Assembly: GCA_028678555.1 (NCBI GenBank)
Contig: JAJRDF010000006.1
Span: 1 to 26,247, forward strand
Direction of reading: 5' to 3'
Source of the DNA: Methanomicrobiales archaeon
GTDB lineage: Archaea > Halobacteriota > Methanomicrobia > Methanomicrobiales > JACTUA01
DNA length: 26,247 bases
The number at the start of each line of letters is the position of its first letter. Positions within the stretch are counted from its first letter, which is position 1. Position numbers and translations under genes: made by a program. The notes under the pieces are model-generated. The model worked only from the letters and a program-made list of their open reading frames with translations. It searched no databases and was not told where the DNA came from. Of this stretch, positions 5,806 through 20,211 are shown one piece after another.

Positions 5806-6591
5806 TCATGCTCCTGCGATAAGACTCAGCACCGCGTAGAGGATATCCCCGAAGATCAGGGCAGTGAAGAACCCTGCGGCGATGGGCACAATGAACGGCA
5901 CCCCGTAGGAGATCCAGACCTGCCCTGCCTTCCGGTAGAGGGCCAGTTCTCTTGCATACTGCTCCGGGTGCTCCCTCAGGTCCCGGGTATAGACCCTGCC
6001 CTCCCCCTTCATCATCCGGGAAAGCGCCGTCCCGATGGGGATGAACCGTCGCTGCAGCCCTTCCGGGGTCTCCTCGAACTCCTCCATCACAAACCCGAAC
6101 GTGCGCTGGATCCCATCGCCGGGGACCGGGAACCCGAAGAAGGGGTAGGGGAGGGGGGCCCGGTGTCCCTTCCGGAGGTTATGGAGGGCGATCCCCAGGG
6201 GGGTCACCAGGTTCAGGATCACGGCATTGACCAGGACCGAGAAGGGCAAGAATCCCAGGGGCGGGTACCCTAGGAGGGGACGGAACGGGAACAGGGGAAC
6301 GCAGCATGCAATGAAGATCAGGGCGTAGGCGTCCGCACCGCCGAAGAGGCGAAGGTACGCGAAGAGGTAGAAGACGGCAGAGAAGAGGAGGGAGAGAAAG
6401 AGGTACTGGAGGGCCAGTTTCCAGTCCTGGGAGAAGAGCGCTGCATAGGTGAGGATGACCATGGGGACGGCCACGATCAGCATGGGGTACCAGGTCCGGA
6501 CCGGCACCCGCCGGTCCCTCAGGTCCAGCACCGACGCGTAGAGGAGGGTGATACCAATGGCGAGGGCCCCGGCCAGGAGAGGGAGAATCAT
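5806..6591 (-). CDS. A24-family prepilin/preflagellin peptidase (PibD/FlaK-like)
   Basis: Multi-TM protein with the N-terminal catalytic Asp region LDLRDRRV, GGAD aspartic motif and C-terminal WISYGVPFIVPI. Confidence 0.9.
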   Translation of the reverse strand: MILPLLAGALAIGITLLYASVLDLRDRRVPVRTWYPMLIVAVPMVILTYAALFSQDWKLALQYLFLSLLFSAVFYLFAYLRLFGGADAYALIFIACCVPLFPFRPLLGYPPLGFLPFSVLVNAVILNLVTPLGIALHNLRKGHRAPLPYPFFGFPVPGDGIQRTFGFVMEEFEETPEGLQRRFIPIGTALSRMMKGEGRVYTRDLREHPEQYARELALYRKAGQVWISYGVPFIVPIAAGFFTALIFGDILYAVLSLIAGA

Positions 6592-6660
6592 CGGTACCAG
6601 TTATTTTCCGGAGGATCACTTTATGCCTGGCGGTTTGGATTTTCGATAAACCGGAAGGAT

Positions 6661-6674
6661 ACAAGATATTTAAC
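6661..6674 (+). promoter_or_regulatory. Candidate BRE-TATA for the ferredoxin-V4R-hydrogenase unit
   Basis: ACAAGA followed by TATTTAAC, 28 nt upstream of TTG 6703. Confidence 0.5.
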
Positions 6675-6702
6675 GGATCACCTCCCATGTACCCGGATAG
6701 GG

Positions 6703-6957
6703 TTGTTTTCCGTGATTGAGATCCGGGTCGACGAGAATGCCTGCAACGGCTGCGGCCTCTGCGTCAAGGACTGCCCGATGCAGGTCTACGAGATGCGGGA
6801 TACCGTCCCTGTCCCCGTCAGGGTGGCGAGCTGCATGGGGTGCCTCTCCTGCCACGAGATCTGTCCTGCCCAGGCACTGGAGCACCGGGGCGTCCACCCC
6901 TCGCGGCGGCACTACATCGATATCCGCGTCTGCGAGATGCTGAACCGGGTGATCTGA
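6703..6957 (+). CDS. 2x[4Fe-4S] ferredoxin
   Basis: CNGCGLCVKDCP and CMGCLSCHEICP motifs. TTG start is uncertain (GTG at 6712 is an alternative). TGA overlaps the next ATG (TGATG). Confidence 0.9.
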   Translation: MFSVIEIRVDENACNGCGLCVKDCPMQVYEMRDTVPVPVRVASCMGCLSCHEICPAQALEHRGVHPSRRHYIDIRVCEMLNRVI

Positions 6958-7520
6958 TGGCGGAAGGGACAGTCCCGCAGGCAAAGGAGGCCGGTTCCGC
7001 CCCCACCGTGTACCGGTCTGAGGATGTGCCCCTGCAGTGTATCCCTCCTCCGGACGAGCTGGAAGACACGCTCCACGGCCTGATGAAACTGAACGGGCTC
7101 ATCATCCGTTCCCTGGAGGAGATCGCCGGGAGGGGTGCCAACGCCGTGACCTACCGGGCCGGGCGGAAGTACGGCCACGAGGTTGCAAAATACTTCCGCA
7201 AGATCGAGGACGTGGAGGAGGCCCTGAAGGAACTCTCCTACATCCTCCACGGTCAGTATACCATCGAGATCTGGAAGCCGGCAGACAAGGACCGGTACAT
7301 CATCGAGGAGAACGGGTCCACGTTCATCTACCTCGTCTTCCATGACTGCATCGTCCGCCAGACGCTCCGGAGGAACGGGCAGCCCCAGGGGGGGCCCCTC
7401 TGCCTGACCCTCTTCGGGTACGTGGTGGGGGCCATCGAGGAGATCACCGGCCGGAAGGCAAAGCTGGAGATCGTGCATACCGGCCCGAACGCCTGCCTGA
7501 AGAAACTGATCCTCCAGTAA
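6957..7520 (+). CDS. V4R (4-vinyl-reductase / hydrocarbon-binding) domain protein, 187 aa
   Basis: Pattern LEEIAGRGANAVTYRAGRKYG...HDCIVR...GPLCLTLFGYVVGAIEEITG...NACL with three spaced Cys. ATG 6957 is coupled to the ferredoxin stop. Confidence 0.8.
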   Translation: MAEGTVPQAKEAGSAPTVYRSEDVPLQCIPPPDELEDTLHGLMKLNGLIIRSLEEIAGRGANAVTYRAGRKYGHEVAKYFRKIEDVEEALKELSYILHGQYTIEIWKPADKDRYIIEENGSTFIYLVFHDCIVRQTLRRNGQPQGGPLCLTLFGYVVGAIEEITGRKAKLEIVHTGPNACLKKLILQ

Positions 7521-7530
7521 GGGTTCCGCC

Positions 7531-8448
7531 ATGAAGATTGCCATCGAAGAACTGGCCGGTTGTTCCGGCTGCACCATCGCCGTCCTGGATCTTCACGAGG
7601 CGCTGCTCGATATCCTGGAGAAGGCCGAGATCGTCTATGCACCCGTGATCATGGACGTGAAGGAGCCACCGGAGGGGATCGATATCGCCTTCGTGACCGG
7701 TGCCGTCAGGAACCGGGAGAACGAGGAGCGGCTGACCCTGATCCGGAAGCGGGCAAAGACGCTGGTCGCCTTCGGCACCTGCGCCTGCTACGGGGGCATC
7801 TCGGGGCTCTCCATGCTGGATTCGCCGGAGCACCTGATCCAGCACGTCTTCCGGGGGGTCTCCACCACCCGCCCGGACGCACCGATCCCGAAGGATGTCC
7901 CGAAGTTCCTGTACCGGGCGTTCGCCGTCGGTGACCTGGCCAGGATGGACTACTACATCACCGGCTGCCCCCCGAAGGAGATGTATCTCTCAAAGATCCT
8001 CCCGGCGCTCATCGCCGGCGAGGTGCCGGCCCTCTCCCGGAAGTCCGTCTGCTCGGAGTGCGACCGGACCATGGGCTCGGTGGATGGGTGGAAACTGAGA
8101 CGCCGCCACGAGGGGGTGCCGGACCGGGAGCACTGCCTGCTGGGCCAGGGGTACCTCTGCCTGGGGGCTGTCACGTTCGGCCGGTGCGGGGCATCCTGCC
8201 CCCACAGCAACGTGCCGTGCCATGGCTGCAACGGCCCGTCCCTGGACATCCTCCGGGAACCCTGCCGGGACATCTACAACATGATGATCCGCCGGATCGC
8301 GGACCTGACCGGGCACACCGAGGCGGAGATCGAGAAGGAGATGTATGACGTGGCCCACACCTTCTACCCCTTCACCATCGGTTCCCTGATCATGGAAGAC
8401 AAGGGGATCTCCAAGATCCGCGACCTGGTGCGGGAGAGGAGCCTGTGA
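7531..8448 (+). CDS. [NiFe]-hydrogenase small subunit, MvhG-like (group 3), cytoplasmic
   Basis: LAGCSGC, FGTCACYGG, GCPP proximal ligands; SVCSECDR, CLLGQGYLCLG, CGASCP and PCHGCNGP for medial/distal clusters. No Tat signal. Confidence 0.9.
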   Translation: MKIAIEELAGCSGCTIAVLDLHEALLDILEKAEIVYAPVIMDVKEPPEGIDIAFVTGAVRNRENEERLTLIRKRAKTLVAFGTCACYGGISGLSMLDSPEHLIQHVFRGVSTTRPDAPIPKDVPKFLYRAFAVGDLARMDYYITGCPPKEMYLSKILPALIAGEVPALSRKSVCSECDRTMGSVDGWKLRRRHEGVPDREHCLLGQGYLCLGAVTFGRCGASCPHSNVPCHGCNGPSLDILREPCRDIYNMMIRRIADLTGHTEAEIEKEMYDVAHTFYPFTIGSLIMEDKGISKIRDLVRERSL

Positions 8449-9818
8449 CCCAGATCACCATCAGCCCGGTGACACGGATCGAGGGGCATGCCCAGGTCCG
8501 CATCCAGCTGAACGACCAGAAGCAGGTGGAACGGGCCCACTTCAGCGTCGTGGAACTCCGGGGCTTCGAGAAGTTCCTGATCGGGGCTGCGGTGGAGGAA
8601 GCCCCCCGGATCACGCCGCGGATCTGCGGCATCTGCCCCACCTCCCACCACCTGGCCTCGGCCATGGCCGTGGACCAGATCTTTGGCGTCACCCCGCCGG
8701 AGACCGGTCGGAAGCTCCGGGAACTCCTGGCCCATGCCCAGTGCATCCACTCCCATGCCATCCACTTCTTCATGCTGGCCGCCCCCGACTTCCTCATCGG
8801 TCACGATGCGCCGGCACAGGATCGGAACGTGCTGGGGATGGTGAAGAAGGCTCCTGCCATCGCCCGGAATGCCATCGAGGTCCGCAAGCTGGGGCAGCGG
8901 ATCACGGAAGCGGTGGGGGGAAAGCCCATCCATCCCTCCAACGCGGTGCCGGGGGGGATCTCCCGGCCGCTGGAGGAGGCGCAGCGGGCTGCCCTCCTCA
9001 CCCAGGCACGGAACGGGCTCTCCATCGCGGAGGAGGGGTGGGAACTGGCCCGGACCCTGCTGGATGCGACGGACCTCTCCCTGGGTGCCGTGGAGACGGC
9101 GTTCATGGGGATGTGCAGGGATGGTGAGTACACCCTCAGCGACGGCCAGGTCCTGATCGCAGGAAAGGACGGGAACCCCCTGGGATCCTTCGCCGGGGCC
9201 GACTACGTCCGGCACATCCAGGAGTATTCGGAGCCCTGGTCGTACCTGAAGTTCGTGAGGCTGGCCTCCGGTGAGCACTACCGGGTGGGGCCCCAGGCAC
9301 GGCTGAACCTCTGCCGGGCGATGGGCACCCCGCTCGCCGACGCGGCGCTGAAGGAGTACCGGGGACGCTTCGGGTCCTGGGTCCAGGCACCCCTGGCCGC
9401 CAACATGGCCCGGTACGTGGAGTTCCTGGCCTCCTGTGAACGGACCGTCCGGCTCCTGGAGGACCCCGCCATCACCGGGACCCGGGTCAGGGAGCCGGCA
9501 GGGAAGGTGGTGAACCACCGGGGCGTGGGGATCCTGGAAGCCCCCCGGGGCACCCTGATCCATGATTACACGGTCGATGAGCAGGGGTTCATCCGGGAAT
9601 GCAACCTGATCGTGGCCACCTGCCAGAACAGCTGGGCCATCGACCGGTCGGTGGAACAGGCGGCCCGGGGGCTGGTCAGGGACGGGGCGCTCACGGAAGC
9701 GGCGGGAAACCGCATCGAGATGGTGATCCGGTCCTATGATCCCTGTATCTCCTGTGCCACCCATGCCATCGGCAGGATGCCGGTGGCCGTTGAGGTCCGG
9801 GATGCAATAAATATTTGA
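8445..9818 (+). CDS. [NiFe]-hydrogenase large subunit, MvhA-like (group 3)
   Basis: TRIEGH, L1 RICGICPTSH, EAPRGTLIHDY, L2 YDPCISCATH plus a 17-aa C-terminal tail. GTGA overlap with the small subunit gene. Confidence 0.93.
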   Translation: MTQITISPVTRIEGHAQVRIQLNDQKQVERAHFSVVELRGFEKFLIGAAVEEAPRITPRICGICPTSHHLASAMAVDQIFGVTPPETGRKLRELLAHAQCIHSHAIHFFMLAAPDFLIGHDAPAQDRNVLGMVKKAPAIARNAIEVRKLGQRITEAVGGKPIHPSNAVPGGISRPLEEAQRAALLTQARNGLSIAEEGWELARTLLDATDLSLGAVETAFMGMCRDGEYTLSDGQVLIAGKDGNPLGSFAGADYVRHIQEYSEPWSYLKFVRLASGEHYRVGPQARLNLCRAMGTPLADAALKEYRGRFGSWVQAPLAANMARYVEFLASCERTVRLLEDPAITGTRVREPAGKVVNHRGVGILEAPRGTLIHDYTVDEQGFIRECNLIVATCQNSWAIDRSVEQAARGLVRDGALTEAAGNRIEMVIRSYDPCISCATHAIGRMPVAVEVRDAINI

Positions 9819-9858
9819 GAGTGGGAGAAGAAGATTGGATAAGGGGCGAAAAACCTGT

Positions 9859-10206
9859 ATGCTCAATCAGATTCTTGCCGAATTCCTGAAACTGGACGGG
9901 GTGTTTGCAGCGGTGGTTGTGGGCCGTGACGGGATTGTCATCGAGAGTGCGGTCTCGGGGAAGGTGGATATCGATGCGCTGGGCGCGATGGCATCCACCG
10001 GCATGGGCACTGCCGAGGCGATGGGCAACGAGCTGGGGAAAGGGGAACTCAACCAGATGATGGTGGAACTGGAGAAGGGACCGATTCTCCTCTCGCCCCT
10101 CTCGAAGGACGAGCTGATTGCCATCGTCTCGGACACCACGGGTAACATCGGCCGGATCAGGTACGAACTCAAGAAAAACAAGGAACGGATCATTGCTGCA
10201 CTCTGA
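9859..10206 (+). CDS. Roadblock/LC7 (MglB-like) protein, 115 aa
   Basis: L..FLKLDGVFAAVVVGRDGIVIES...LGAMAS...LGKGELNQMMVELEKGPILL...NIGRIR signature. ATG 9859 is preferred over the track's TTG 9835. Confidence 0.9.
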   Translation: MLNQILAEFLKLDGVFAAVVVGRDGIVIESAVSGKVDIDALGAMASTGMGTAEAMGNELGKGELNQMMVELEKGPILLSPLSKDELIAIVSDTTGNIGRIRYELKKNKERIIAAL

Positions 10207-10209
10207 CAC

Positions 10210-12142
10210 ATGATGCACACCGGGAAGGTAAGGGGCAGGTTCAGCGAGGTCCTGCCCAAGGTGAGGACTCTCAGGGGGGCGATGCGGGTGATCACCCCCG
10301 AGGGAAGGGGCGTGGTACTGGTGGACATGGGGAAACCGATGGCGTCCTACCTGAAGGCGGGAGAGACCACGTTCCGGGGCAGCGAGTCGCTGGAGCTCCT
10401 TGAATCCGAGCCGATGGCCGAGTACGACCTGGTGGCCTACGAAGAGGACGAGTTCCGCGAAGCGATGGGTATCTGTGCCAGCGAGGGCCTCCGGCTGGAG
10501 GATTACCGTGCCGCTGCGGCGGTGACCGGTGGGGCAGAGAAGGGAGGCGGCCTCCTGTCGAACCTCTTCCGGAGGTTCTCCGGCGTTGGGAATGAGGCAG
10601 AGACCGCTCCGTCCCCCCGTCCCCGGCCCCTGAAGGAGGAGAAGGTGCCGGAGCCGATCCCTCCCGTGGTGAGCCCTCCGGAGGCGGCCCCGCCGGTTGC
10701 GAAACCGCCGGAGCCGTCGGCCATGGAAGAGAAGGAACCCTTCCCGGTGGGAATTCCCGCGGCCTCCCCGTCCCCTCCCCCCGCCCCAGCGCAGGAGGAG
10801 TCCGAGCTCTCGGCCATCGTGAAAAGACTCTCCCGATCCCGCGGGGTATCCCCGCTACCCGCGGAGACACCTCCGCCTCCTCCCGTGTCCGCACCCTCCC
10901 CGGTCCCCGTAGGCACCCCCGCGCCCCGGGAGGAAGGAGCCCCCCTTTCCGCCGGTGAACCGGAGGAGGAGAAGGAGGAAGAGGAAGCAGCGGTCCCGGG
11001 CGATGACACCCTGGACGAGATTCTGAGACGGTACAAATCCGGCGGGCAGGCGCTGGTTGTGGCATGGGGAGAGCAGGGGGAACAGTCCCGGGTGGAAATG
11101 AATGCCATGATGAAACGGATCACACGGCTGGACATTGTCTCCTTCAGGAAGGAGATGGAGGACGTGAAATCCACTGCCCTCCGTGACAGCGCCGCAGGGC
11201 GGGAGGCCCGAGACCTTCCCGGGGAACCGGTTGCCCGCGGGGCGATTCCCCCTCCCCCTGCCCCGGAGAAAGAGATGGTGCCGGTGGAACCGGTCCCCCA
11301 GGAACCAACCCGGCCATCCACGGATATGGACGACCTGAAGGCATTCATCCGGCAGCTGGAGAGCCTGGATCTGCAGACCCGGGAGCCGGTGCCGGAGGAG
11401 ATACCGGTCGTGCCCGTGGAGCCCCCGGCCCCGTCTCTCCGGCCGAAGGAGACCCCCGCTCTCACGATCGTTCCCGGCGTGCTCGGCAGCCTGCCCCCCC
11501 GGCCGAAGGAGGTTCCCGAATCCCCGAAGGCCGGGTCCGGAAAGGCGCTGCCACCCATGAGATTCGGGGAGCCCCTGGAGGCGGACCGGAAAGTGGAACG
11601 CCGGCCAGTCGTTCTCCCGGAGTCCCCTGCAGGTGCGGAAACGCCCGCCCGGGAGGTGATCATCCAGTGGAAGGAGGATGAGCCGCTGTCGGGAGCCGCT
11701 GCGGGGACAGCCACCCTGCCGGGGGCCCCCCAGGCAGAGGCGCCCCGGGGCCGGCCGGTGATCCTGAAACGGGAGATCGATATCCGGAGGGTCGAACGCC
11801 GGCCGGAACGGCCACGGGCTGCCCTTCCGCTCCTGGATGAGACGAAGATGGAGAAGATCATGCGCCAGCCCGGAGTCATCGCCGTAGGAAGGGTTTGCGA
11901 TCCAGTCCGTCGGAAAGGCGGACTTCGACCAGGTGGCAGCGAATGCAGAGGACCTGCTCCGGGCCGGTACCAAGATTGCATCGGATATCCATATCGGAAC
12001 CCTCCACCAGATCATTCTCGAGAGCGCCGGAGGGAAGCTGATCATCTCCCCGTACGGGGATCTGAACCTCTGCGTCTTCACCGATGCCGATGCCAACCTG
12101 GGACTGATCCGCGTGGCAATCCGGTCCCTGCAGGCGGAGTGA
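10210..12142 (+). pseudogene. DUF2226/PATAN-like N-domain + Pro/Glu-rich linker + C-terminal Roadblock domain, interrupted by a frameshift at ~11887 (real lesion or sequence error)
   Basis: Frame 0 reads ...IMRQPGVIAV to 11886. The Roadblock sequence continues in the +1 frame from 11888 (EGFAIQSVGKADFDQVAANAEDLLRAG...NLGLIRVAIRSLQAE*, TGA ends 12142). Confidence 0.8.
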
Positions 12143-12147
12143 TCCGG

Positions 12148-12831
12148 ATGAAAATACCCCACTGCTCCACGACGGCGACCCGGAGGGGGGTAACGGTCAG
12201 GGAGCTCCTGGACCAGCTGACCACCGGCAGGTTCACCGGCTACTGTGCCATCCCTTTCGGCGAGAATATCACCTCCCTTGTCTTTGAGGGGGGCATCTGC
12301 CTCCTGGCCGAACACCTGGGGCAGGGGGGATATCCGGGCCTCCAGAAACTGGCGGTCATGGGAGAGGCCCGGGTGGATGCGGCACTCTGCGAATTCACGA
12401 CAACCCAGCTGGCCGTCACCCTGAAACTGAACGACCGGTGCCGGGTGGTCCTGCCGCCCGCCTCCCCCCAGGCCGGAGCCGGTACAGCCTCACGGGACAC
12501 TTTCGTGAGACCGGTGAAGCTTGCAGGGGTGGGCGCAAAACCGGTCCGGGTCACGAGCCTGCGGACGAAGGGGGTCCCTGCCGGGCATGCCGGGGCCGGG
12601 GGCCGGGGAAAGGCCGCCCCGGGCCAGATCGTGGACCGGAAGATAGGCCGGACCGAACAGCCCATCGGCAGGAAGGAGGAACCCATCACCAAGTCAGCCC
12701 TGGAGAGCCTGAAGACCATCAAGGATTCCTTCAAAACCGATGCCGCGGACCTGCTGGAGGAGCTGAACCTGGGCCACCTGGTGGTGAAGGGACAGCCCAA
12801 AAATGCCGGGAAAGAGGAAGAAAAAAGATGA
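12148..12831 (+). CDS. DUF2226/PATAN-like domain protein, 227 aa, with basic linker and helical C-terminus
   Basis: Own RBS GGAGTGA and ATG 12148. Pattern VRELLDQLTTGRFTGYCAI...LVFEGGICLLAE...GYPGLQKL. The domain name comes from pattern recognition only. Confidence 0.75.
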   Translation: MKIPHCSTTATRRGVTVRELLDQLTTGRFTGYCAIPFGENITSLVFEGGICLLAEHLGQGGYPGLQKLAVMGEARVDAALCEFTTTQLAVTLKLNDRCRVVLPPASPQAGAGTASRDTFVRPVKLAGVGAKPVRVTSLRTKGVPAGHAGAGGRGKAAPGQIVDRKIGRTEQPIGRKEEPITKSALESLKTIKDSFKTDAADLLEELNLGHLVVKGQPKNAGKEEEKR

Positions 12832-12890
12832 AATGCAAGGGAACCTGTGAGTGAAATGACAGCAACGTATAAGTATTTGGATAATGAGAA

Positions 12891-12909
12891 TTTTATAGAG
12901 TTTATAAAT
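12891..12909 (+). promoter_or_regulatory. TATA box(es) for minD
   Basis: TTTTATAG and TTTATAAAT (12901-12909) in an AT-rich gap. The second ends 23 nt before ATG 12933, consistent with a leaderless start. Confidence 0.6.
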
Positions 12910-12932
12910 CGCTCTGTATGAGCAGGTGCGAG

Positions 12933-13721
12933 ATGTTCAGAGCTTTCACCATTGCTTCCGGAAAAGGCGGTACCGGGAAAACCACAGTAACCGTCAATCT
13001 GGGCACATCACTGGCCCAGCTGGGAAAGGAGACCTTCATCCTGGATGCCGATATCGGCATGGCCAACCTGGGGCTGGTGCTGGGCCTCGAAAGTGTTCCC
13101 GTCACCCTCCACGAGGTACTGGCAGGAAAGGCCAGCATCGAGGATGCCATCTACGAGGGGCCCAACGGCCTCAAGGTGGTCCCGAGCGGCATCTCGCTCC
13201 AGGGATTCCAGAATGCCGATCCCGAGAAGATGAAGGATGTGATGAGGGACCTGGTGGGGAGGAGCGAGTTCCTCCTCATCGATGCCCCGGCCGGCATCAG
13301 CAAGGACGGTGTCGTTGCCCTCGCCATCGCCGATGAGGTGGTGCTCGTGGTGAACCCGGAGCTCTCCTCCATGGCCGATGCCCTGAAAACCAAGATCCTC
13401 ACCGAGATGGTGGGGGGGAAGGTCTACGGGGCCATCCTGAACCGGGCAGGGATGGAGAACACCGAGCTGCGCAGGCACAGCGTGGAGGACGTCCTGGGTG
13501 TCCGGGTCATCGACATGATCCCGGAGGACGCCAACGTGAGGAGGGCGGCCGCTTATAAGACACCGGTTGTGATCAAGTACCCCACCTCAGGCGCGTCGCG
13601 GGCATTCCGGCGGATTGCCGCTGACCTGGCCGGTTCCGAGTACAAGGAAGAGAAGACTGCGGTCCAGGAAGGGTTCGTGGATCGCCTGGCACGGACCCTC
13701 TTCGGGGGCGCCCAACGGTAG
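12933..13721 (+). CDS. minD: MinD/ParA-family ATPase (archaeal MinD-like)
   Basis: Deviant Walker A SGKGGTGKTT, DADIGMANL, LLIDAPAG and a C-terminal amphipathic helix GFVDRLARTLF. Start at 12933 is favoured by TATA spacing; 12918 is the alternative. Confidence 0.92.
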   Translation: MFRAFTIASGKGGTGKTTVTVNLGTSLAQLGKETFILDADIGMANLGLVLGLESVPVTLHEVLAGKASIEDAIYEGPNGLKVVPSGISLQGFQNADPEKMKDVMRDLVGRSEFLLIDAPAGISKDGVVALAIADEVVLVVNPELSSMADALKTKILTEMVGGKVYGAILNRAGMENTELRRHSVEDVLGVRVIDMIPEDANVRRAAAYKTPVVIKYPTSGASRAFRRIAADLAGSEYKEEKTAVQEGFVDRLARTLFGGAQR

Positions 13722-13760
13722 ATCGACGGAAATCTCGCACCAAATATCATTATTTCAATG

Positions 13761-13775
13761 TTTTTTTCTTTTTCT
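13761..13775 (+). terminator. Oligo-T tract, candidate archaeal terminator after minD
   Basis: T-rich run about 40 nt after the minD stop. Confidence 0.5.
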
Positions 13776-13816
13776 GACTCAATTCAATTACCAGTATAAA
13801 AGACAAAGTTTATTAC

Positions 13817-13843
13817 TATCATGACGATGATATATATTTATAT
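13817..13843 (+). promoter_or_regulatory. Inverted repeat abutting a TATA box upstream of the pilus ATPase unit
   Basis: TATCAT-gacg-ATGATA (13817-13832) immediately followed by TATATTTATAT (13833-13843). Confidence 0.55.
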
Positions 13844-13909
13844 CCGCAACATCCGTCAGAGGTTACACCCTCCCCAGGATTTCCGTTCCCGCGAGGTTGA
13901 GCGGATGAG

Positions 13910-14542
13910 GTGAACAACCGTACGTCTGAGATTTCCAGCATCATCGATGAGGTGCTCAGCAACGCGACCTTTGTCGCCAGTTATCCCCTGGACGAGCTGA
14001 TCCGTTCCGCCGAGGAATCCGGAGTGAACGGGATCGGCGTCTATGAGGAGAAGGAGCGGAAATTCTTTCTGATGTTCGAGGCGGGTCAGCCGGAAGGGGT
14101 CATCTACGTGGACCCCAAGGGAACCCTCTTTGGTGACAAGGCCGCATTCCTCCTCTCGGGGAAAGAGACCTTCGAATTCTTCCAGGTCAGCCAGCCGATG
14201 GTGAATGCCCTGGCATCCCGGTGCAGGGTCTTTGACAAGAGCCACCTGAAGAAGCGCCTCCGTGAGGAGCTCCCCACGTTCGGGGGAAAGAGGCCGAGCC
14301 CCGGGGTCCTCTGCCTGATCATTGTGAAAGACGGTGTCACCCAGACGGGGATCCGGGTATCCATCAAGAAGGGCCGTCAGATCATTGCGAGCGATATGAC
14401 CACATCCGATGGAAAGGTCTGCTTCAAGCTGCTCAACGGGAAATATGACTGCACGGCCGTGGACCGGGATCAGGCGATGTACACGTTCATGGTTGATTTC
14501 AATCACCGGTATGCGGAGACCACCATAGAAATTGGGGGGTAG
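13910..14542 (+). CDS. Hypothetical protein: DUF2226/PATAN-like N-domain plus beta-rich (carboxypeptidase-regulatory/transthyretin-like) C-domain
   Basis: GTG start with GAGG upstream. N-half VNGIGVY...FFLMFEAGQPEGVIY...GTLFGDKA; C-half GIRVSIKKG...TTSDGKVCFKLLNGKY. Only 3 nt separate it from the ATPase start. Confidence 0.7.
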   Translation: MNNRTSEISSIIDEVLSNATFVASYPLDELIRSAEESGVNGIGVYEEKERKFFLMFEAGQPEGVIYVDPKGTLFGDKAAFLLSGKETFEFFQVSQPMVNALASRCRVFDKSHLKKRLREELPTFGGKRPSPGVLCLIIVKDGVTQTGIRVSIKKGRQIIASDMTTSDGKVCFKLLNGKYDCTAVDRDQAMYTFMVDFNHRYAETTIEIGG

Positions 14543-14545
14543 CAG

Positions 14546-17500
14546 ATGTCTCAAATGGATCCAAAGAAGGAAGAACTGAATGCAATGATGAAACGCCTGG
14601 GCCTGCTCGGCATGGAGACCGCCGACGAGGCCCCGGCTGCACCGGCCGGACCGGTGGTCCAGGTGGAGAAACCGACTGTGGTCCGGGCAACGGCGCCGGA
14701 AAGTGCCAGGGAGCAGGAAGTACCCGTACGGCCGGGGGAGAGCATTCCTCCGGCCGCAGCGGCACCGAAGGCAAAGAAACCGTCTTCCCCGCCCTCCGTG
14801 GGCCCGGAGGATCTCTCGCCCATGATGGACCGGCTGAAGCGGCTGGACCTGTCCACATTCCGGCAGGAGATCGAGGAAGCGCCGGAACCCGCCGCGGTTC
14901 CTGTGAAATCCCCTCAGGCGGCACCCCAGCCAGCCCCCCAGGATGACCTCTCTCTCCTCATGAAGCGGCTGGAGGGGGCTGTCCCCCCGAAAGAACCTGC
15001 CCCCCAGGCCGTCAGGGCCACCCGGGCCGAGGCTGCCCCGCTCCCCCAGGCACCCCCCGCCCCGGCCGCGGCCGTCCCGGAGGATGACCTCTCTGCCCTC
15101 ATGAAGCGGCTCGGCGGCGGCCTGCCACCCAAGGAGGCCGGGAAGAAGACCGTCCGGGCCACCCGGGCCGAGACTGCCCCGCAGGCAGCCCCCGTTCCGC
15201 CCGCAGCGGCCCAGGAGGATGACCTCTCTGCCCTCATGACGCGGCTGGAAGGTGTCACGAAGGATACGGGAGCCGAGCCCGAGGTCCGTGCCGCGGAACC
15301 CCGGGCGGCTCCGGCACCGGCAAGAAAAGTCCCCCAGGCTCCTGCAGCTCCCCCCGCCGCACGAGACGGGGATCTCTCCACCATGATGGACCGCCTGAAG
15401 CAGCTGGATCTGGCCATCGGCGAGGAGAAGCCGGAGGCGAAAGCGAAGGAAACGCAGGCCCCGCCTCCCGCCCTGGAGCCCCCCACGGGTCCCGGCGACG
15501 AATACGAGGCCCTGGTGCAGCGCCTGGGATCCTTCCGGCAGGAGATGAAGGCTGCCAGGGATGCCCGGACCGCCGAGACCACTGGGAAGGAGGAGTCTGC
15601 CCCTGCGCCCCGCCAGCGGGTAGGGGGGACGAAGGCGGTCCAGGGCGCCGCGGTCACCGCCGGGAACCTGGACGCCATGGCCCGCAGTGCGGGCACGGCC
15701 TCAGCGGCGGACCAGGAGGTCACCCAGGTCATCGACGATATCTTCAAGGTCCACACGGACACGTCCCTCGCGGAAGGCAAGGTGAATGTCTTCGATTCGC
15801 TCCACGATATCGCCGAGTCGGGGACCGGGGAGGCGGCAATGGAGGAGACCCCGTCGAAGCCTGTCCAGGCCAAGCGCACGCGCTGGTCAGAGATGGAGAC
15901 TGAGGAGGCCGAGGAGGCTGAGGATACCATCGTCTCTGTGGACGAGATCAAGGATATCTCTGACCTAATCCTGCCCAAGGGAGCCACCTTTGCCATCGAC
16001 GAGGTAAAGCTCCACGAGAGGACCGCCGTCTTTGATGTGAAGGGTGGCGGTATCGCCGGGAAGGTGCCCTCCGAGATGATCGAGAGCTGGCACTCCCAGC
16101 TCCCCATGGGGGTCATCAAGGACGTGGTTATCGGTGGTGAAGGGGCCCCGGAACAGCCGAAGGGGAAGGCAGGGGGGATCCTCGGCAGACTGAACATCAT
16201 GAAGGTGATCCGGCCCGAGATCGAGGAGTACAACCCCAAGATCCACGGCCCCCTGGTGGACCTGAACATCCGGGCCCAGCCCACCATCGAGGAGGTGGAG
16301 ATCTACCCGGTGAACGAACCGTATGCCTATATCCGGATCATCCACGACAGCACCTCCCACGAGTACACCTACCAGGTGCTGGAGCCCCAGCTCTCCCCGG
16401 CCGAGAAGGAGCTCCTGGTGGAGATCAAGCAGCGACTCTTCGAGACCCTGGAGGTGAATACGAAGGACATCACCAAGGATTCGGCAAAGAAAGCCATCCG
16501 GGGTGCAGTGGACGGGATCCTCCGGGATTACGGCATCTCACTCTCCCCGGCAGGGAGGGAGAAGATCCTGTACAACATCGAGAAGGAGTTCCTGGGCGAC
16601 GGGCTCGTGGACCCCATCATGCACGACAAGTACATCGAGGATATCTCCTGTGACGGGATCAATATCCCCATCTTCGTGTACCACACCTCCTATGAGAATA
16701 CGAAGACCAACCTCATGTACCGGGACGAGGAGGACCTGGATTCCTTTGTCACCAAGATGGCGCAGCGGGCAGGCAAGCACATCTCCATCGCCGAGCCCAT
16801 CCTGGACGCCACCATGCCGGACGGGTCCCGTATCCAGATGACCCTGGGTGCCGAGGTCACGGCCCATGGATCCACCTTCACGATCCGGAAATTCCGTGAA
16901 GAGCCCATCACGCCAACGGATCTGATCGAGTGGTCCACCTTTTCGCCCCTCTCCATCGCCTACCTCTGGCTGGCGGTGGAGAGCGGGAAATCGGCGATCT
17001 TTGCCGGGGGTACCGCATCCGGGAAGACCACGTCGCTCAATGCCATCTCCCTCTTCATTCCCCCGATGGCCAAGATCGTTTCCCTGGAGGATACACGGGA
17101 ACTGAAGCTCCCCCACCCCAACTGGATAGCCTCGGTCACCCGGGACTCCTTTGACACGGCGGGGAAAGGGCAGATCGACATGTACGAGCTCCTGCGGGCT
17201 GCACTGCGGCAGCGGCCGGAGTACCTGGTGGTGGGCGAGGTGAGAGGCAAGGAGGCCCTCACCCTGTTCCAGGCCATGTCGACAGGCCACGTCACCTATT
17301 CCACCATCCACGCTGACTCAGTGGCGAGCGTCGTCCACCGTATCGAGAACGCGCCCATGGACGTGCCCCGCAACATGCTCTCTGCGCTGAACCTGGTGGC
17401 CGTCCAGACCCAGGCCCGGATCGGAGGCCAGCGGATCCGGCGCTCCAAGCAGATCATCGAGATTCTGGATATCGACCCGCGGACGAACGAGCTGATCACG

Positions 17501-17773
17501 AACGAGGTCTTCCGGTGGTATCCCTCCACGGACGAGATCCGGTACTCCGGCAAGTCCTACATCCTGGAGGAGATCATGGAAGAGCGCGGCTGGAGCGAGT
17601 CCCGGATGAAGGAGGAGCTGAAACGGCGCCAGGAGCTGCTGGAGTGGATGCGTCTCAAGATGATCCGGCACTACAAGGACGTGTCGAAGATGCTCATCTC
17701 CTACTTCCGGGATCCCGAGGCGGTCATTGAGATCGTGCGCAAGGACCTCTATGCCAAGGGAGAGGCCGCATGA
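14546..17773 (+). CDS. Type II/IV secretion (type IV pilus) ATPase, VirB11/PilB/ArlI family, with ~540-aa low-complexity N-terminal extension
   Basis: IEDISCDG, DATMPDGSRIQMT, FTIRKF, Walker A GGTASGKTT, SLEDTREL, ALRQRPEYLVVGEVRG and MSTGH...TIHA motifs. Confidence 0.95.
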   Translation: MSQMDPKKEELNAMMKRLGLLGMETADEAPAAPAGPVVQVEKPTVVRATAPESAREQEVPVRPGESIPPAAAAPKAKKPSSPPSVGPEDLSPMMDRLKRLDLSTFRQEIEEAPEPAAVPVKSPQAAPQPAPQDDLSLLMKRLEGAVPPKEPAPQAVRATRAEAAPLPQAPPAPAAAVPEDDLSALMKRLGGGLPPKEAGKKTVRATRAETAPQAAPVPPAAAQEDDLSALMTRLEGVTKDTGAEPEVRAAEPRAAPAPARKVPQAPAAPPAARDGDLSTMMDRLKQLDLAIGEEKPEAKAKETQAPPPALEPPTGPGDEYEALVQRLGSFRQEMKAARDARTAETTGKEESAPAPRQRVGGTKAVQGAAVTAGNLDAMARSAGTASAADQEVTQVIDDIFKVHTDTSLAEGKVNVFDSLHDIAESGTGEAAMEETPSKPVQAKRTRWSEMETEEAEEAEDTIVSVDEIKDISDLILPKGATFAIDEVKLHERTAVFDVKGGGIAGKVPSEMIESWHSQLPMGVIKDVVIGGEGAPEQPKGKAGGILGRLNIMKVIRPEIEEYNPKIHGPLVDLNIRAQPTIEEVEIYPVNEPYAYIRIIHDSTSHEYTYQVLEPQLSPAEKELLVEIKQRLFETLEVNTKDITKDSAKKAIRGAVDGILRDYGISLSPAGREKILYNIEKEFLGDGLVDPIMHDKYIEDISCDGINIPIFVYHTSYENTKTNLMYRDEEDLDSFVTKMAQRAGKHISIAEPILDATMPDGSRIQMTLGAEVTAHGSTFTIRKFREEPITPTDLIEWSTFSPLSIAYLWLAVESGKSAIFAGGTASGKTTSLNAISLFIPPMAKIVSLEDTRELKLPHPNWIASVTRDSFDTAGKGQIDMYELLRAALRQRPEYLVVGEVRGKEALTLFQAMSTGHVTYSTIHADSVASVVHRIENAPMDVPRNMLSALNLVAVQTQARIGGQRIRRSKQIIEILDIDPRTNELITNEVFRWYPSTDEIRYSGKSYILEEIMEERGWSESRMKEELKRRQELLEWMRLKMIRHYKDVSKMLISYFRDPEAVIEIVRKDLYAKGEAA
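14810..15412 (+). repeat. In-frame coding tandem repeat, five units of 132-153 nt
   Basis: GAT(GAC)CTCTC...ATG...CGGCT units start at 14810, 14942, 15083, 15218 and 15371, encoding DLS(P/L/A/T)(M/L)M(D/K/T)RL. A VRATRAE sub-repeat is also present. Confidence 0.85.
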
Positions 17774-18693
17774 ACAGTTACGAGCGGTTCTGTTTCAGGA
17801 TCCTGGGAGAGCGGGCCAAGAAGAGAAGGGAGGAGTTCCTCTCGCTCCGCAACAACCTGCTGAGGGGACGGATCAGCACCCCTTTTGAGGCGTACCTGGC
17901 CACGGCGTGGGTCAGTTCATTCCTCGGAGGGTTCCTGGCGGCTGCGATCCTGGGCCTCCTGAGTTTCTGGCTCAGGATCCCCGAGATGATCACCTACAAG
18001 GGGACGCTTCCTGAGTTCATGTACGGCATGTCGGATTACCGGCTGGTGGCAGGCACCATCCTCACCTTCCTCCTGGCCCTCCTCATCATCGGCGGGATCA
18101 TTTACCTGATCTTCATGGTGTACCCCAGCGTGGTGGCCGGGGAACGGCGCCGTAACATTGATGCCACGCTCCCCTACGCCATCAACTACGTCACCGCCAT
18201 GTCCACGGCAGGGATCACGCCGGCAGAGGTCTTCAGCCTCCTGGGAGACAGCCCCATCTACGGGGAGAGCTCGGTGGAGGCACGGTACATCACCCGGGAG
18301 GTCCGCGTCTTCGGTAAGGATCTCATGGACGCCATCCGCGTCGTCTCCACCGTGACCCCCAGTGAACGGATGAAGGAGTTCCTGCAGGGGGCGGTAGCCA
18401 GCATCTCCGCCGGGTCCAACCTCACCGAGTACTTCCGGAACAAGGCCCAGCAGTATACCCTGGAGAACCGGCAGTCCCAGAAGATGTTCCTGGAGACCCT
18501 GGGGCTCATCGCCGAATCCTACGTCACTGCGCTCGTCGCAGGGACGCTGTTCCTCATCATCCTGCAGTCCATCATGTCCATCATCGGCGGCGATACCAAC
18601 CCGTTCCTCCTCTACATCGTCATCTACCTGATCGTGCCCTTCGGGAGCATCATGTTCGTGGTCCTGATCTCCTCCATGACACCGGAGACGTAA
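17770..18693 (+). CDS. Type II secretion system F family (TadC/PilC-like) membrane platform protein
   Basis: ERRRNIDATLPYAINYVTAMSTAG...EARYITREVRVFGKDLMDAI with several TM helices. ATGA overlap with the ATPase. Confidence 0.92.
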   Translation: MNSYERFCFRILGERAKKRREEFLSLRNNLLRGRISTPFEAYLATAWVSSFLGGFLAAAILGLLSFWLRIPEMITYKGTLPEFMYGMSDYRLVAGTILTFLLALLIIGGIIYLIFMVYPSVVAGERRRNIDATLPYAINYVTAMSTAGITPAEVFSLLGDSPIYGESSVEARYITREVRVFGKDLMDAIRVVSTVTPSERMKEFLQGAVASISAGSNLTEYFRNKAQQYTLENRQSQKMFLETLGLIAESYVTALVAGTLFLIILQSIMSIIGGDTNPFLLYIVIYLIVPFGSIMFVVLISSMTPET

Positions 18694-18694
18694 C

Positions 18695-19735
18695 ATGAGC
18701 CTGAGTGAAACCTTCAACAATTTCCTGAACCGCAAGAGCTACAAGCGGGAGAATGTCCCGGAGATGGTGCTCAGCGATTTCGAACGCGATGAGGCCCATA
18801 TCCTGGAGAAGATCTCCTACCAGAAGAAGATCCGGGAAGGCCTGGGCAGGTTCATGAAACACCCGTTCCAGGTCATCCGCGAGAATCCCACCAACGTGCT
18901 GATCCTCTCCATCCCGATGGCAGCCCTGGTCTTCGTGGGCGGGCTCCTCCTCATGTTCATGAACAACAGCCTCCTGACCATCTTCACGGAAACGCTGGTT
19001 GACGACGTGATCTGCCTCGCGGTGCTGGTCGCCATCGTGCCCCTTGCCATCCTGGACTTCATGGAGTCAAAGCGGGTGAACAGCCTGGAGGAGGCCCTCC
19101 CCAACTTCTTCCGGGACGTGGCCGGTATGAACGACAGCGGGATGACACTGCCCAACGCCATCCACAACGTGTCCCAGGGCCATTACGGGGCCCTGACCCC
19201 CTACATCCGGCGGCTGAACTCCGAGATGTCCTGGTCGGTCCCCTTCGTGGAGGCCCTCCTCCGGTTCGGGAAACGGGTGGGGACCCCCCTGGCCCAGCGG
19301 GCGGTGGACCTGATCTCCAAGGCATCCAAGGCGGGGGGCGATGTCTCCGAGGTGCTCAGGGCGGCGGCCAACGACTCCTACGAGTTCTACAATCTGAAAC
19401 AGGAGCGGAGGAACAACATGCTCATCTACATGGTGATCGTGGTCATCTCGTTCCTGGTCTTCCTGTTCGTCATCGCCATCCTCTGTTCCACCTTCCTCAC
19501 CACCATGGCCGAGGCCGGGGCCAAGGCATCCTCGGCAGGCGCCGCGGCAGCCGGGTTCATGGGTGCTGTGGACATCCTCTTTTACAAGCGGATCTTCTCC
19601 CATGCCGCCCTGATCCAGGGATTCTTCTCGGGTCTCGTGGCAGGGCAGATGGGGGAGGGGAGCGCCGTCGCCGGCCTGAAATACTCGGCCATCATGCTCA
19701 CCATCGCCTGGATCACCTTCCGGTTCTTTATCTGA
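18695..19735 (+). CDS. Second type II secretion system F family (TadC/PilC-like) platform protein
   Basis: LEEALPNFFRDVAGMNDSGMTL, GGDVSEVL and HAALIQGFFSGLVAGQMGEG motifs. Confidence 0.92.
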   Translation: MSLSETFNNFLNRKSYKRENVPEMVLSDFERDEAHILEKISYQKKIREGLGRFMKHPFQVIRENPTNVLILSIPMAALVFVGGLLLMFMNNSLLTIFTETLVDDVICLAVLVAIVPLAILDFMESKRVNSLEEALPNFFRDVAGMNDSGMTLPNAIHNVSQGHYGALTPYIRRLNSEMSWSVPFVEALLRFGKRVGTPLAQRAVDLISKASKAGGDVSEVLRAAANDSYEFYNLKQERRNNMLIYMVIVVISFLVFLFVIAILCSTFLTTMAEAGAKASSAGAAAAGFMGAVDILFYKRIFSHAALIQGFFSGLVAGQMGEGSAVAGLKYSAIMLTIAWITFRFFI

Positions 19736-19833
19736 ATCCGGCGGACAGGACGCGGGGGGGGAACCCCGCCACCCCTCGTGTTTTCCCTGCGGGGGCGTGC
19801 AAGATGGGACGGGAAGTGCCCGGGCAGGTCACG

Positions 19834-19860
19834 GGAAGGGGAAAAGAAAGAAGAGGGGTG
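19834..19860 (-). terminator. Pyrimidine tract after sui1, candidate terminator
   Basis: The minus strand reads CACCCCTCTTCTTTCTTTTCCCCTTCC about 25 nt after the sui1 stop, between convergent genes. Confidence 0.4.
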
Positions 19861-19884
19861 ATTTCCGGGAGAGGAGGGAATCTT

Positions 19885-20190
19885 TCAGGAGATGTTATCC
19901 AGCTTGTAGCCCTTCTGGGTCAGCAGTTCCTTGACCCGTTCCAGGTGGTTCCCCTGGAGTTCGATGGAGGAGCCCTTGACGGTGCCGCCGCAGGCGAGCT
20001 TCCCCTTCAGGAATTTGGTCAGTTCATTCAGGTCGATATCAACGGGATCGAGGCCATCGATGATGGTGACTTCCTTCCCATACCGCCGTCTGTTGATCTT
20101 GACAGTGATTCGCTGCTGTTCCTTGGCAACTTCTTCACAGATGCAGAGTTCCTTTGGCAGTCCGCACGTTGGACAGATCCCACCATTCAT
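19885..20190 (-). CDS. sui1: Translation initiation factor SUI1 / aIF-1 (YciH family)
   Basis: [44 protein letters not shown] and IELQGNH motifs; GGAG RBS. Confidence 0.97.
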
Positions 20191-20211
20191 TACTCCTAGT
20201 GTTCAATGCTC

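Follow-up and report, generated by a model that had tools for sequence, protein, structure and literature searches.

We analyzed a 26-kb contig (JAJRDF010000006.1; 26,247 nt), the whole of which is hereafter called the window, from a 78%-complete metagenome-assembled genome (MAG) of the archaeal order Methanomicrobiales, whose nearest named relatives are Methanolinea and wetland MAGs. In the window, genes for a ferredoxin (Fd), a V4R-superfamily protein and the two subunits of a [NiFe]-hydrogenase (HydS and HydL) lie between a prepilin peptidase gene and the motor genes of a type IV pilus-type machine, together with genes for two Roadblock proteins (Robl1 and R2), two further PATAN-like proteins (X3 and X210) and a MinD-type ATPase (Table 1). 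Genes were identified from the listing of open reading frames (ORFs) and from Pfam and NCBIfam family scans of the window, and all genes that had been named in a first-pass annotation of the bare sequence were found on the strands given there. The same annotation had described the junctions as mostly overlapping or a few nucleotides wide. They are tight, from -4 to +16 nt, within Fd to X3 and within X210 to the second TadC gene (the V4R gene start overlaps the ferredoxin stop), but the run is broken by two AT-rich gaps, one before MinD and one before X210. The true start of the ferredoxin is probably GTG 6712, and the likely start of Robl1 is ATG 9859.

Table 1. Genes of the hydrogenase and pilus cluster, in positions of the window.
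Feature	Position	Strand	Basis
Prepilin peptidase, archaeal, class III signal	5806-6591	-	Pfam Arc_PepC_II 2.2e-22, Peptidase_A24 1e-7
Ferredoxin, 2x[4Fe-4S]	6703-6957	+	Fer4 family matches ~1e-10
V4R-superfamily protein, 187 aa	6957-7520	+	AF2 model and Foldseek
[NiFe]-hydrogenase small subunit HydS, MvhG/VhuG-like	7531-8448	+	NCBIfam VhuG 6e-71, Pfam Oxidored_q6
[NiFe]-hydrogenase large subunit HydL, MvhA-like, group 3c/3d-like	8445-9818	+	NCBIfam VhuA 7e-114
Roadblock/LC7 protein Robl1	9835-10206	+	Pfam Robl_LC7 4.2e-16
R2, PATAN-like and Roadblock	10210-12142	+	Frames read, hhalign, Robl_LC7 matches of orthologues
X3, PATAN/DUF2226-like N-domain and acidic helical tail	12148-12831	+	hhalign
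Archaeal MinD/FleN-type ATPase	12918-13721	+	TIGR01969 1e-100, 336 bits
X210, 210 aa, PATAN-like-related N-domain and beta-sandwich	13910-14542	+	hhalign, AF2
Type IV pilus-type assembly ATPase, FlaI/PilB3-like, 1075 aa	14546-17773	+	Pfam T2SSE 8e-37, PilB3_C 2.4e-6
TadC/FlaJ-like platform protein 1	17770-18693	+	Pfam T2SSF 5e-14
TadC/FlaJ-like platform protein 2, cluster end	18695-19735	+	Pfam T2SSF 1.6e-17
SUI1/aIF1	19885-20190	-	Directly beyond the cluster

The hydrogenase looks catalytically complete and Mvh-like (group 3c). HydL contains the motifs RIEGH, RICGICPTSH and DPCISCATH, and the 17 residues beyond the last of these make up a maturation tail. Among PDB entries, it scored 398 bits with 7t2r_D, from the HydSL of a bifurcating NiFe enzyme, and 378 bits with MvhA (5odc_F); the VhuA model gave 380 bits, which is under its equivalog cut-off of 800. 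In HydS, the 12 cysteines of three [4Fe-4S] clusters were invariant in an alignment with the canonical MvhG of Methanocella and of an archaeal family without McrA (family f8 below). A homologue search with HydL returned close orthologues only and no canonical MvhA.

No mvhD, mvhB or hdr gene was present in or near the cluster, and FlpD/MvhD was found neither in the window nor in the 78%-complete MAG. Complete relatives encode a single MvhD, hundreds of kb or more away from the cluster on the same replicon (on another contig in genome G004), and MvhD also occurs in a Methanomicrobiales family that does not have this hydrogenase. The ferredoxin gene always accompanies the hydrogenase, and in other lineages it lies between HydS and HydL or after HydL. 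The ferredoxin is the probable electron acceptor of the hydrogenase in the stead of MvhD. A gene for a HycI/FrhD-like maturation endopeptidase stands directly upstream of X3-MinD-Fd-V4R-HydSL in Methanomicrobiaceae (L003:3797-4264), and several bacterial clusters described below carry a HycI gene; none was found in the window.

Phenolics and lipids are ligands of V4R domains, a family that takes its name from a reductase. The 187-aa protein encoded between ferredoxin and HydS did not match Pfam V4R (PF02830) even at E 10. The earlier assignment of this protein to V4R was nevertheless borne out by its fold: the AlphaFold2 (AF2) model (pLDDT 81, pTM 0.73) has the two-layer alpha/beta fold of V4R and Bet3, and Foldseek aligned it with the V4R sensor domains of MopR, PoxR and DmpR (E 2e-6, probability 1.00, TM 0.51-0.58), with TRAPPC3/Bet3 (E 3e-4) and with the V4R domain of MJ1460 (E 4e-3). 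The protein-atlas clusters that hold it are titled 'hydrocarbon binding protein (contains V4R domain)', and distant members of its subfamily match Pfam V4R at 1e-4 to 1e-2, one of them passing with 1.5e-17. The subfamily is rare, with 136 representatives at E <=1e-3 among 1.84 billion proteins. Three of the proteins found (P0127, P0199 and P0214) are fusions of ferredoxin and V4R. Across all homologues, C149 and C180 do not vary at all and C131 hardly does; R134 and G154 are also conserved, and E171 and H174 are conserved within the order. V4R has been described as a domain that binds ligands or acts as an enzyme (bioRxiv 10.64898/2026.10.19.760177).

The middle of the run needs correcting: its order is R2, X3, MinD (12918-13721) and X210, and the 873-aa ORF at 10210-12831 is a chimera. 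It consists of two genes, R2 and X3, joined by an 11-nt deletion at 11885/11886. The Roadblock domain of R2 opens in frame 0 (…MRQPGVIAV) and goes on only in the +1 frame, and a congener (L018) has 11 extra nucleotides at that point. Contigs from two independent public runs (X1 and X2; at least 99% identity) carry the missing ATCGGTCTTCC behind 11885, and the loose end of a contig from a third public run agrees with the same 11 nt. The deletion probably arose in assembly or consensus calling, or else reflects a minor variant; it is not a trait of the population. A second difference from the near-identical public contigs was noticed at 11058, where the window lacks 30 nt, in frame, in the Pro-rich linker of R2.

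R2 begins with a PATAN-like domain and ends with a Roadblock domain, and a long Pro-rich linker joins the two. Its Roadblock half aligned with Robl1 at 98.7% in hhalign, and its orthologues match Robl_LC7 at 3e-7 to 4e-8. The N-domain aligned with X3 (94.5%, E 8e-8) and with X210 (90%, E 1.5e-6). The label 'PATAN-like' given in the first-pass annotation is only partly borne out: one domain is common to the three proteins, but none of the window proteins has an above-threshold Pfam match for it: X3, X210, the R2 N-domain and the N-terminal extension of the pilus ATPase gave no Pfam or NCBIfam match even at E 10. X3 orthologues from family f5 reached DUF4388 at 7.6e-4 and 0.01, under the 25-bit cut-off. 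The positional homologues in f8 and in an McrA-positive family (f15) matched DUF2226 with 59.8 and 26.4 bits against a cut-off of 22, and also touched DUF4388. When X3 was aligned with these DUF2226-positive proteins, hhalign gave 71-77%, and X3 and R2 together gave 71-87%. X210 did not match them (hhalign 5% and 0.4%) and is tied in through R2 only. X210 (AF2 pLDDT 83) has a C-domain with a transthyretin/carboxypeptidase-regulatory-like beta-sandwich by Foldseek, which found no PDB match for the N-domain. It was found in 35 of 41 genomes of the order, always directly upstream of the ATPase. Family scans of the window gave no small Ras-like GTPase.

MinD scored 336 bits against TIGR01969 (cut-off 201.75) and carries the deviant Walker A motif GKGGTGKTT. 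Its best PDB match is MinD-1 of A. fulgidus (1hyq, 264 bits), with FleN/FlhG at about 100 bits, and an amphipathic C-terminal helix is kept in all lineages. An identity as an Mrp/MinD-type HypB nickel chaperone was ruled out by the TIGR01969 score and by MinD-1 and FleN being the closest proteins, and also because families lacking the hydrogenase still have MinD in their pilus locus.

The T2SSE ATPase, the T2SSF/TadC platform proteins and the prepilin peptidase together identify an archaeal type IV pilus locus. The ATPase core spans residues 586-1067 and matches NCBIfam FlaI at 1e-124, below cut-off; the 580-aa N-extension is disordered and Pro-rich. The motif [DE][DE]LSxxMxRL occurs six times in this extension (14546-15550) and two to three times in the R2 linker (10800-11400), and is restricted to the source genus and a neighbouring genus. 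It may be a common docking peptide that links R2 and the ATPase to one partner.

To see how the genes are arranged in relatives, X210 and HydL were searched in 40 relatives and 16 regions were fetched; 74 more were obtained with the V4R-like protein. All fetched regions were painted with the window proteins, and the genes were divided into three modules: H (Fd, V4R, HydS and HydL), R (Robl1, R2, X3 and MinD) and P (prepilin peptidase, X210, ATPase and two TadC). The order Fd-V4R-HydS-HydL-Robl1-R2 was invariant, and Robl1 stood right behind HydL in all 75 testable Methanomicrobiales loci. A Roadblock gene also adjoins the V4R-linked hydrogenase in every other lineage examined, and the HydL-Roadblock arrangement is far beyond chance.

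Around this core, the modules were found in different combinations. The order of the window (prepilin peptidase divergent, then H, R with X3 and MinD, X210, ATPase and TadC) recurred in its own family, in Methanolinea-like MAGs and in Methanofollis. In the Methanogenium type, X3 and MinD are missing between R2 and X210, so that H and R2 run directly into X210-ATPase-TadC, and some Methanomicrobiaceae have a second, inverted Roadblock pair. In Methanoculleus, Methanoplanus and relatives, X3-MinD-Fd-V4R-HydS-HydL-Robl1-R2 is separated by about 1 Mb or more from the pilus locus, in which the prepilin peptidase stands divergent to X210-ATPase-TadC1-TadC2. In relatives without the insert (L002, L004, L006 and L015), the prepilin peptidase faces X210-ATPase-TadC directly. 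In families that lack a hydrogenase orthologue, the pilus locus itself contains Robl1-R2 and X3-MinD as insertions. Thus H with R but without P, R with P but without H, and all three modules together (the last in several families) were all seen, and H adjoins the pilus motor in several Methanomicrobiales families in three arrangements.

The first-pass annotation had proposed that its idea would fail if the hydrogenase block and the Roadblock/MinD/pilus block were usually unlinked in related genomes. Our survey showed that they are linked: the hydrogenase was never parted from the Roadblock pair, and where it lies away from the pilus locus (in Methanoculleus, Methanomicrobiaceae and Methanocella), it is still accompanied by Roadblock, PATAN-like and MinD genes.

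To examine recurrence beyond the order, a profile of the V4R-like protein was searched over 401 genomes of the phylum. Matches were found in four of six Methanomicrobiales families and in 13 of the 15 genomes of a family that we take to be Methanocellaceae, with which the gene order of Mtc_0104-0113 agrees; further matches came from f15 (2/54 genomes), f8 (4/64) and, weakly, from one member of f29. Methanocellaceae have the order Fd-V4R-HydS-HydL-Robl1-R2-X3-(237 aa)-MinD. In f15, a T2SSE ATPase comes directly after Fd-V4R-HydS-HydL, then a double TadC in fused form and a KaiC/FlaH-like protein; genes for MinD, three Roadblocks, a DUF2226 protein and a small GTPase of Arf/Ras-like type lie alongside. 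In f8, a non-methanogen lineage, the order is V4R, V4R, HydS, Fd and HydL, and MinD, a Roadblock and a DUF2226/PATAN protein follow. The V4R-linked HydL of f8 (L097-L100, e.g. L098:5548-6765) ends at ...DPCLSC(A/S)(S/T)H and has no tail, like sensory hydrogenases; in the same f8 genome, the canonical MvhA has the tail and an adjacent endopeptidase gene (L103). Methanocella and f8 both carry a separate canonical mvhD-mvhG-mvhA beside hdr, which indicates that the V4R-linked enzyme, the 'Mvh1' of M. conradii, is a distinct paralogue.

Six distant contexts of the V4R subfamily were also inspected. One reads Roadblock-HycI-Fd-V4R-HydS-HydL-x-Roadblock. In another (L111:9001-18474), V4R-V4R-HydS-HydL-Fd-DUF2226-Roadblock lies tail to tail with a canonical MvhA-MvhG-MvhD-HdrB-HdrC-HdrA. 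A bacterial contig with sigma-70 and DnaG genes (L113:8596-16432) has Roadblock-V4R-HydS-HydL-Fd-V4R-HycI followed by two STAND NTPases, and in a second bacterial context (L116:5796-13201), genes for a histidine kinase (HisKA) and a REC-PATAN regulator are divergent from Roadblock-Roadblock-V4R-HydS-HydL-Fd-V4R-HycI. A gene for an Fd-V4R fusion was found right after a T2SSE ATPase (L115:5074-5769) on a 6.6-kb contig that has HdrA-like and MvhD genes and no hydrogenase. The sixth was a 2.5-kb fragment with V4R-HydS, too short for neighbours. HydL of the distant contexts has full ligand motifs and the maturation tail in all cases. Beside the Roadblock gene common to every lineage, PATAN/DUF2226 and NTPase genes are usual, and linkage to a pilus-type ATPase was seen in at least two independent archaeal lineages and in the one fusion context.

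The two gaps of the window were read by eye. The gap before MinD is 86 nt, AT-rich, with TATA-like TTTATAGA/TTTATAAA just upstream of the gene; that before X210 is 188 nt and also AT-rich, with an oligo-T run and TATA-like boxes. From these two gaps, three transcription units are likely, and MinD probably has its own promoter. A scan for bacterial sigma-70 promoters and terminators was discarded, as it is not meaningful for an archaeon. RNA support for co-transcription was weak: it came from one run labelled as a metatranscriptome, with small contigs, which was flagged as probably DNA.

Expression data were available for M. conradii from a single transcriptome experiment (Liu and Lu, PMC6046458, supplementary file 2). 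Most genes from Mtc_0113 to Mtc_0104 stood at log2 values of about 8.7-9.4, with Mtc_0105 lower at 6.5, and mvhD-2/hdr-2 at 11-12 were several-fold above them. In syntrophic co-culture, Fd, V4R, mvhG-1, mvhA-1 and minD-1 rose by log2 0.3-0.8, and the two Roadblock genes and the X3 homologue by 1.2-1.6, a rise of 1.2- to 3-fold across the set, and the flanking Mtc_0114 fell (PMC6046458). These data are not proof, but they fit one regulon for low-H2, partner-associated growth.

Roadblock proteins regulate NTPases, and in eukaryotes, subunits of the V4R fold and of the Roadblock/longin fold form platforms that regulate NTPases. This background lends plausibility to a reading of the gene order described above to which we give an even chance: a dedicated hydrogenase-ferredoxin-V4R complex would feed an H2 or redox signal into a Roadblock/PATAN/MinD switch over a type IV pilus-like machine. 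HydSL would oxidize H2, and the electrons would travel by way of its three clusters to a private ferredoxin; this ferredoxin would be bound to the V4R protein, to which it is fused in some organisms. The Roadblock/PATAN proteins could then read the redox or ligand state of Fd-V4R, in the way that Bet3-type V4R proteins work with longin/Roadblock subunits, and would set the nucleotide state or the membrane location of MinD. MinD and the PATAN-like adaptors might act on the pilus ATPase and so decide when or where the machine assembles, and cells would in this way adjust piliation or attachment to the H2 supply or the redox state. Precedents for single steps are that PATAN regulators bind the type IV pilus motor in Synechocystis (bioRxiv 10.1101/2021.06.11.447907), that Roadblock arCOG02603 and FleN/MinD are frequent in archaeal type IV pilus loci (PMC4858521), and that MglB homologues adjoin PATAN proteins (PMC4316618).

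Several points weigh against the proposed signalling pathway. Its whole support consists of gene order and one transcriptome. The active site and the maturation tail look like those of a working enzyme, unlike known sensory hydrogenases; with full ligands, three clusters and the tail, HydSL has no trait of known H2 sensors. It is also the only Mvh-like enzyme in Methanomicrobiales genomes, and may serve metabolism there too, or only metabolism. The conserved Cys and His residues of the V4R protein, by analogy with the structural Zn site known from PoxR and Thor-TRAPPC3 (PMC10933270), may well form a Zn site that tethers the sheet to a helix, and not a redox centre. The gaps suggest that MinD and the pilus genes are transcribed apart from the hydrogenase operon. 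A simple motif scan restricted to the ORFs of the window found no pilin gene whose product has a signal peptide of class III; the genes for pilins commonly lie outside such loci (PMC4858521). The unrelated flank leuS-PIN ATPase-hisI is equally conserved across the order and demonstrates sticky synteny, for which reason our argument rests on the rearrangements and not on conservation alone. Finally, the backbone of a tree of the HydL sequences at hand was not resolved. In approximately unbiased (AU) tests, a Methanomicrobiales and Methanocella 'Mvh1' clade was allowed (p 0.50), a recent duplication in Methanocella was borderline disfavoured (p 0.05), and a single clade of all V4R-linked enzymes was marginally rejected (p-AU 0.04). 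We therefore make no claim of a single origin.

The enzyme could instead be the ordinary metabolic MvhAG, with electrons passing through a separately encoded MvhD to HdrABC bifurcation and with the Roadblock/MinD/pilus neighbourhood being inherited synteny only. Databases name it F420-non-reducing (Mvh) everywhere, and Anderson et al. 2009 (PMC2686161) likewise took Memar_1007-1008 as the Mvh of M. marisnigri, with MvhD elsewhere, beside Hdr. The complete active site, clusters and tail, the lack of another Mvh-like enzyme in the order and the syntenic leuS-PIN-hisI flank all agree with this. The Roadblock link, however, outlasts every rearrangement and recurs in Methanocellaceae, in two further archaeal lineages and in bacteria. 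In addition, Methanocella and f8 have their separate mvhDGA/hdr, families without the enzyme still have MvhD, a ferredoxin that is at times fused to V4R takes the place of MvhD, and expression in M. conradii is several-fold under that of Mvh2/Hdr2. We consider a purely metabolic role unlikely.

It is also improbable, in our estimate, that HydSL-Fd-V4R works as an H2-dependent system that reduces or carries some small hydrophobic compound bound in V4R, with the Roadblock/PATAN proteins only regulating or scaffolding the enzyme and the pilus adjacency in some lineages being secondary. Such a role would suit the V4R fold, whose best matches are ligand-binding sensor domains with a cavity, and the description of V4R as possibly enzymatic; V4R is the most constant partner, often with two copies per cluster, and several clusters carry the HycI maturation protease, as expected for a real enzyme. 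It leaves the invariant Roadblock without a role, however, and likewise the NTPase, PATAN and two-component genes that recur beside it. In no lineage does the neighbourhood encode a candidate substrate pathway, and Fd-V4R occurs beside a T2SSE ATPase without a hydrogenase, on the short 6.6-kb contig.

A third alternative, to which we assign a similarly small chance, is that the hydrogenase is cargo that MinD, Roadblock and the PATAN-like proteins place at the membrane or pole near the pilus base, possibly for exchange of H2 or electrons with syntrophs. MinD/ParA ATPases do position protein cargo, the amphipathic helix of MinD is kept, the motif repeated in R2 and the pilus ATPase suggests one docking partner, and the expression of the cluster goes up in syntrophic co-culture. 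Against this, families that lack the hydrogenase retain R and MinD at the pilus locus, which means that the switch has work to do even where no such cargo exists; the kinases and STAND NTPases of the bacterial versions are typical of signalling and not of positioning; and V4R and a private ferredoxin would not be needed.

A wider form of the signalling reading is that V4R-Fd-[NiFe]-hydrogenase-Roadblock is an ancient signalling module of archaea and bacteria. In it, an active hydrogenase would be the H2 or redox receptor and the switches would be interchangeable: MinD here, and elsewhere small GTPases, STAND NTPases or REC-PATAN proteins, with pilus control in methanogens. We regard this extension as tentative, and somewhat more probably wrong than right.

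Among known systems, the nearest in logic are the group 2b sensory hydrogenases HoxBC-HoxJ of Cupriavidus necator and HupUV-HupT of Rhodobacter. There too, a cytoplasmic two-subunit [NiFe]-hydrogenase is encoded with signalling proteins and without an energy-conserving partner, and the turnover of H2 governs the state of a transducer bound to the enzyme, as we propose for the window; among the bacterial relatives of the module, one adjoins a histidine kinase. The window enzyme differs in being group 3-like and in keeping the tail of HydL, with only the f8 relatives ending at His. Neither a PAS-kinase partner nor any other kinase is encoded in the window; the transducers would be the ferredoxin, V4R and Roadblock/PATAN proteins, and the signal would act on a MinD-type switch and a pilus motor instead of on the transcription of hydrogenase genes.

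The closest relatives in sequence belong to MvhAGD-HdrABC (group 3c, PDB 5ODC), which shares the active-site motifs and has a small subunit with the same 12 Cys. Here the ferredoxin and V4R stand in place of mvhD, mvhB and hdr, a Roadblock gene always comes next, and the enzyme coexists with the canonical set in f8 and in Methanocella, where the two are called 'Mvh1' and 'Mvh2' (PMC6046458).

The pilus side of the cluster resembles MglA/MglB-PATAN of Myxococcus and Thermus and the PATAN regulators of the Synechocystis PixG/PatA type in having Roadblock, PATAN-like and NTPase proteins beside a type IV pilus motor. A Ras/Arf-like GTPase is present in the f15 relative, whereas the NTPase of the window is archaeal MinD only; the PATAN-like domains of the window are too divergent for Pfam thresholds, and a hydrogenase neighbour was not found for these systems in the literature searched. 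The PilB3-like ATPase, two TadC genes and dedicated peptidase, with pilins elsewhere, are shared with the euryarchaeal clade-2 pili (PilB3-PilC3 of Haloferax volcanii and Epd of Methanococcus; PMC4858521), while only the source lineage has an ATPase with the long N-extension and its repeated motif. The survey of archaeal type IV pili in which that clade is described (Makarova et al. 2016, PMC4858521) mentions neither 'hydrogenase' nor 'V4R' (0 mentions each), and ferredoxin is also unmentioned. As an analogy of folds only, the cluster recalls the TRAPP/Ragulator platforms, in which V4R-fold subunits (Bet3/TRAPPC3) and longin/Roadblock-fold subunits regulate small GTPases: it encodes a V4R-fold protein with two Roadblock-fold proteins and an NTPase. 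The NTPase of the cluster is of the MinD (SIMIBI) type, and those platforms have nothing that corresponds to the hydrogenase or the ferredoxin.

H2-dependent gene regulation is known in methanogens, and to our knowledge no H2 receptor is known for it. Hydrogenotaxis is known in a methanogen (PMC3817446). The first-pass annotation knew of no described archaeal pathway from H2 sensing to pili, in agreement with our full-text literature searches, which gave no paper describing an association of a hydrogenase with V4R, Roadblock, PATAN, MinD or pilus genes. If the signalling reading is correct, this would be the first candidate pathway from H2 to behaviour in archaea; the enzyme would represent a sensory hydrogenase of a new class, and attachment would be tied to the syntrophic supply of H2. 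The Methanomicrobiales 'Mvh' and the Methanocella 'Mvh1', now counted as methanogenic electron-bifurcation machinery, would have to be read anew, and the pairing of V4R with Roadblock, mostly discussed as a forerunner of TRAPP/Ragulator, would gain a prokaryotic setting. The pairing of hydrogenase and switch genes, which recurs in distant archaea as well as in bacteria, points to H2- or redox-dependent control of cell-surface machines of a kind not described before. Methanoculleus, Methanofollis and Methanocella are cultivable, thus the idea is directly testable.

The cluster is preceded on the minus strand by leuS, the gene of a PIN-ATPase-KH protein and hisI, which lead up to the prepilin peptidase gene; the second TadC gene is followed by SUI1, a class II ribonucleotide reductase and cobQ. 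The PIN protein with its PilT-like ATPase and KH domains (3103-4962, minus strand) is kept between leuS and hisI across the order, and stands outside the pilus system despite its T2SSE match. Many long ORFs in this genome of 63% GC are spurious, and the ORFs at 19804-20199 and 22181-23500 were rejected as antisense shadows of SUI1 and of cobQ (plus strand, ~22106-23554), respectively.

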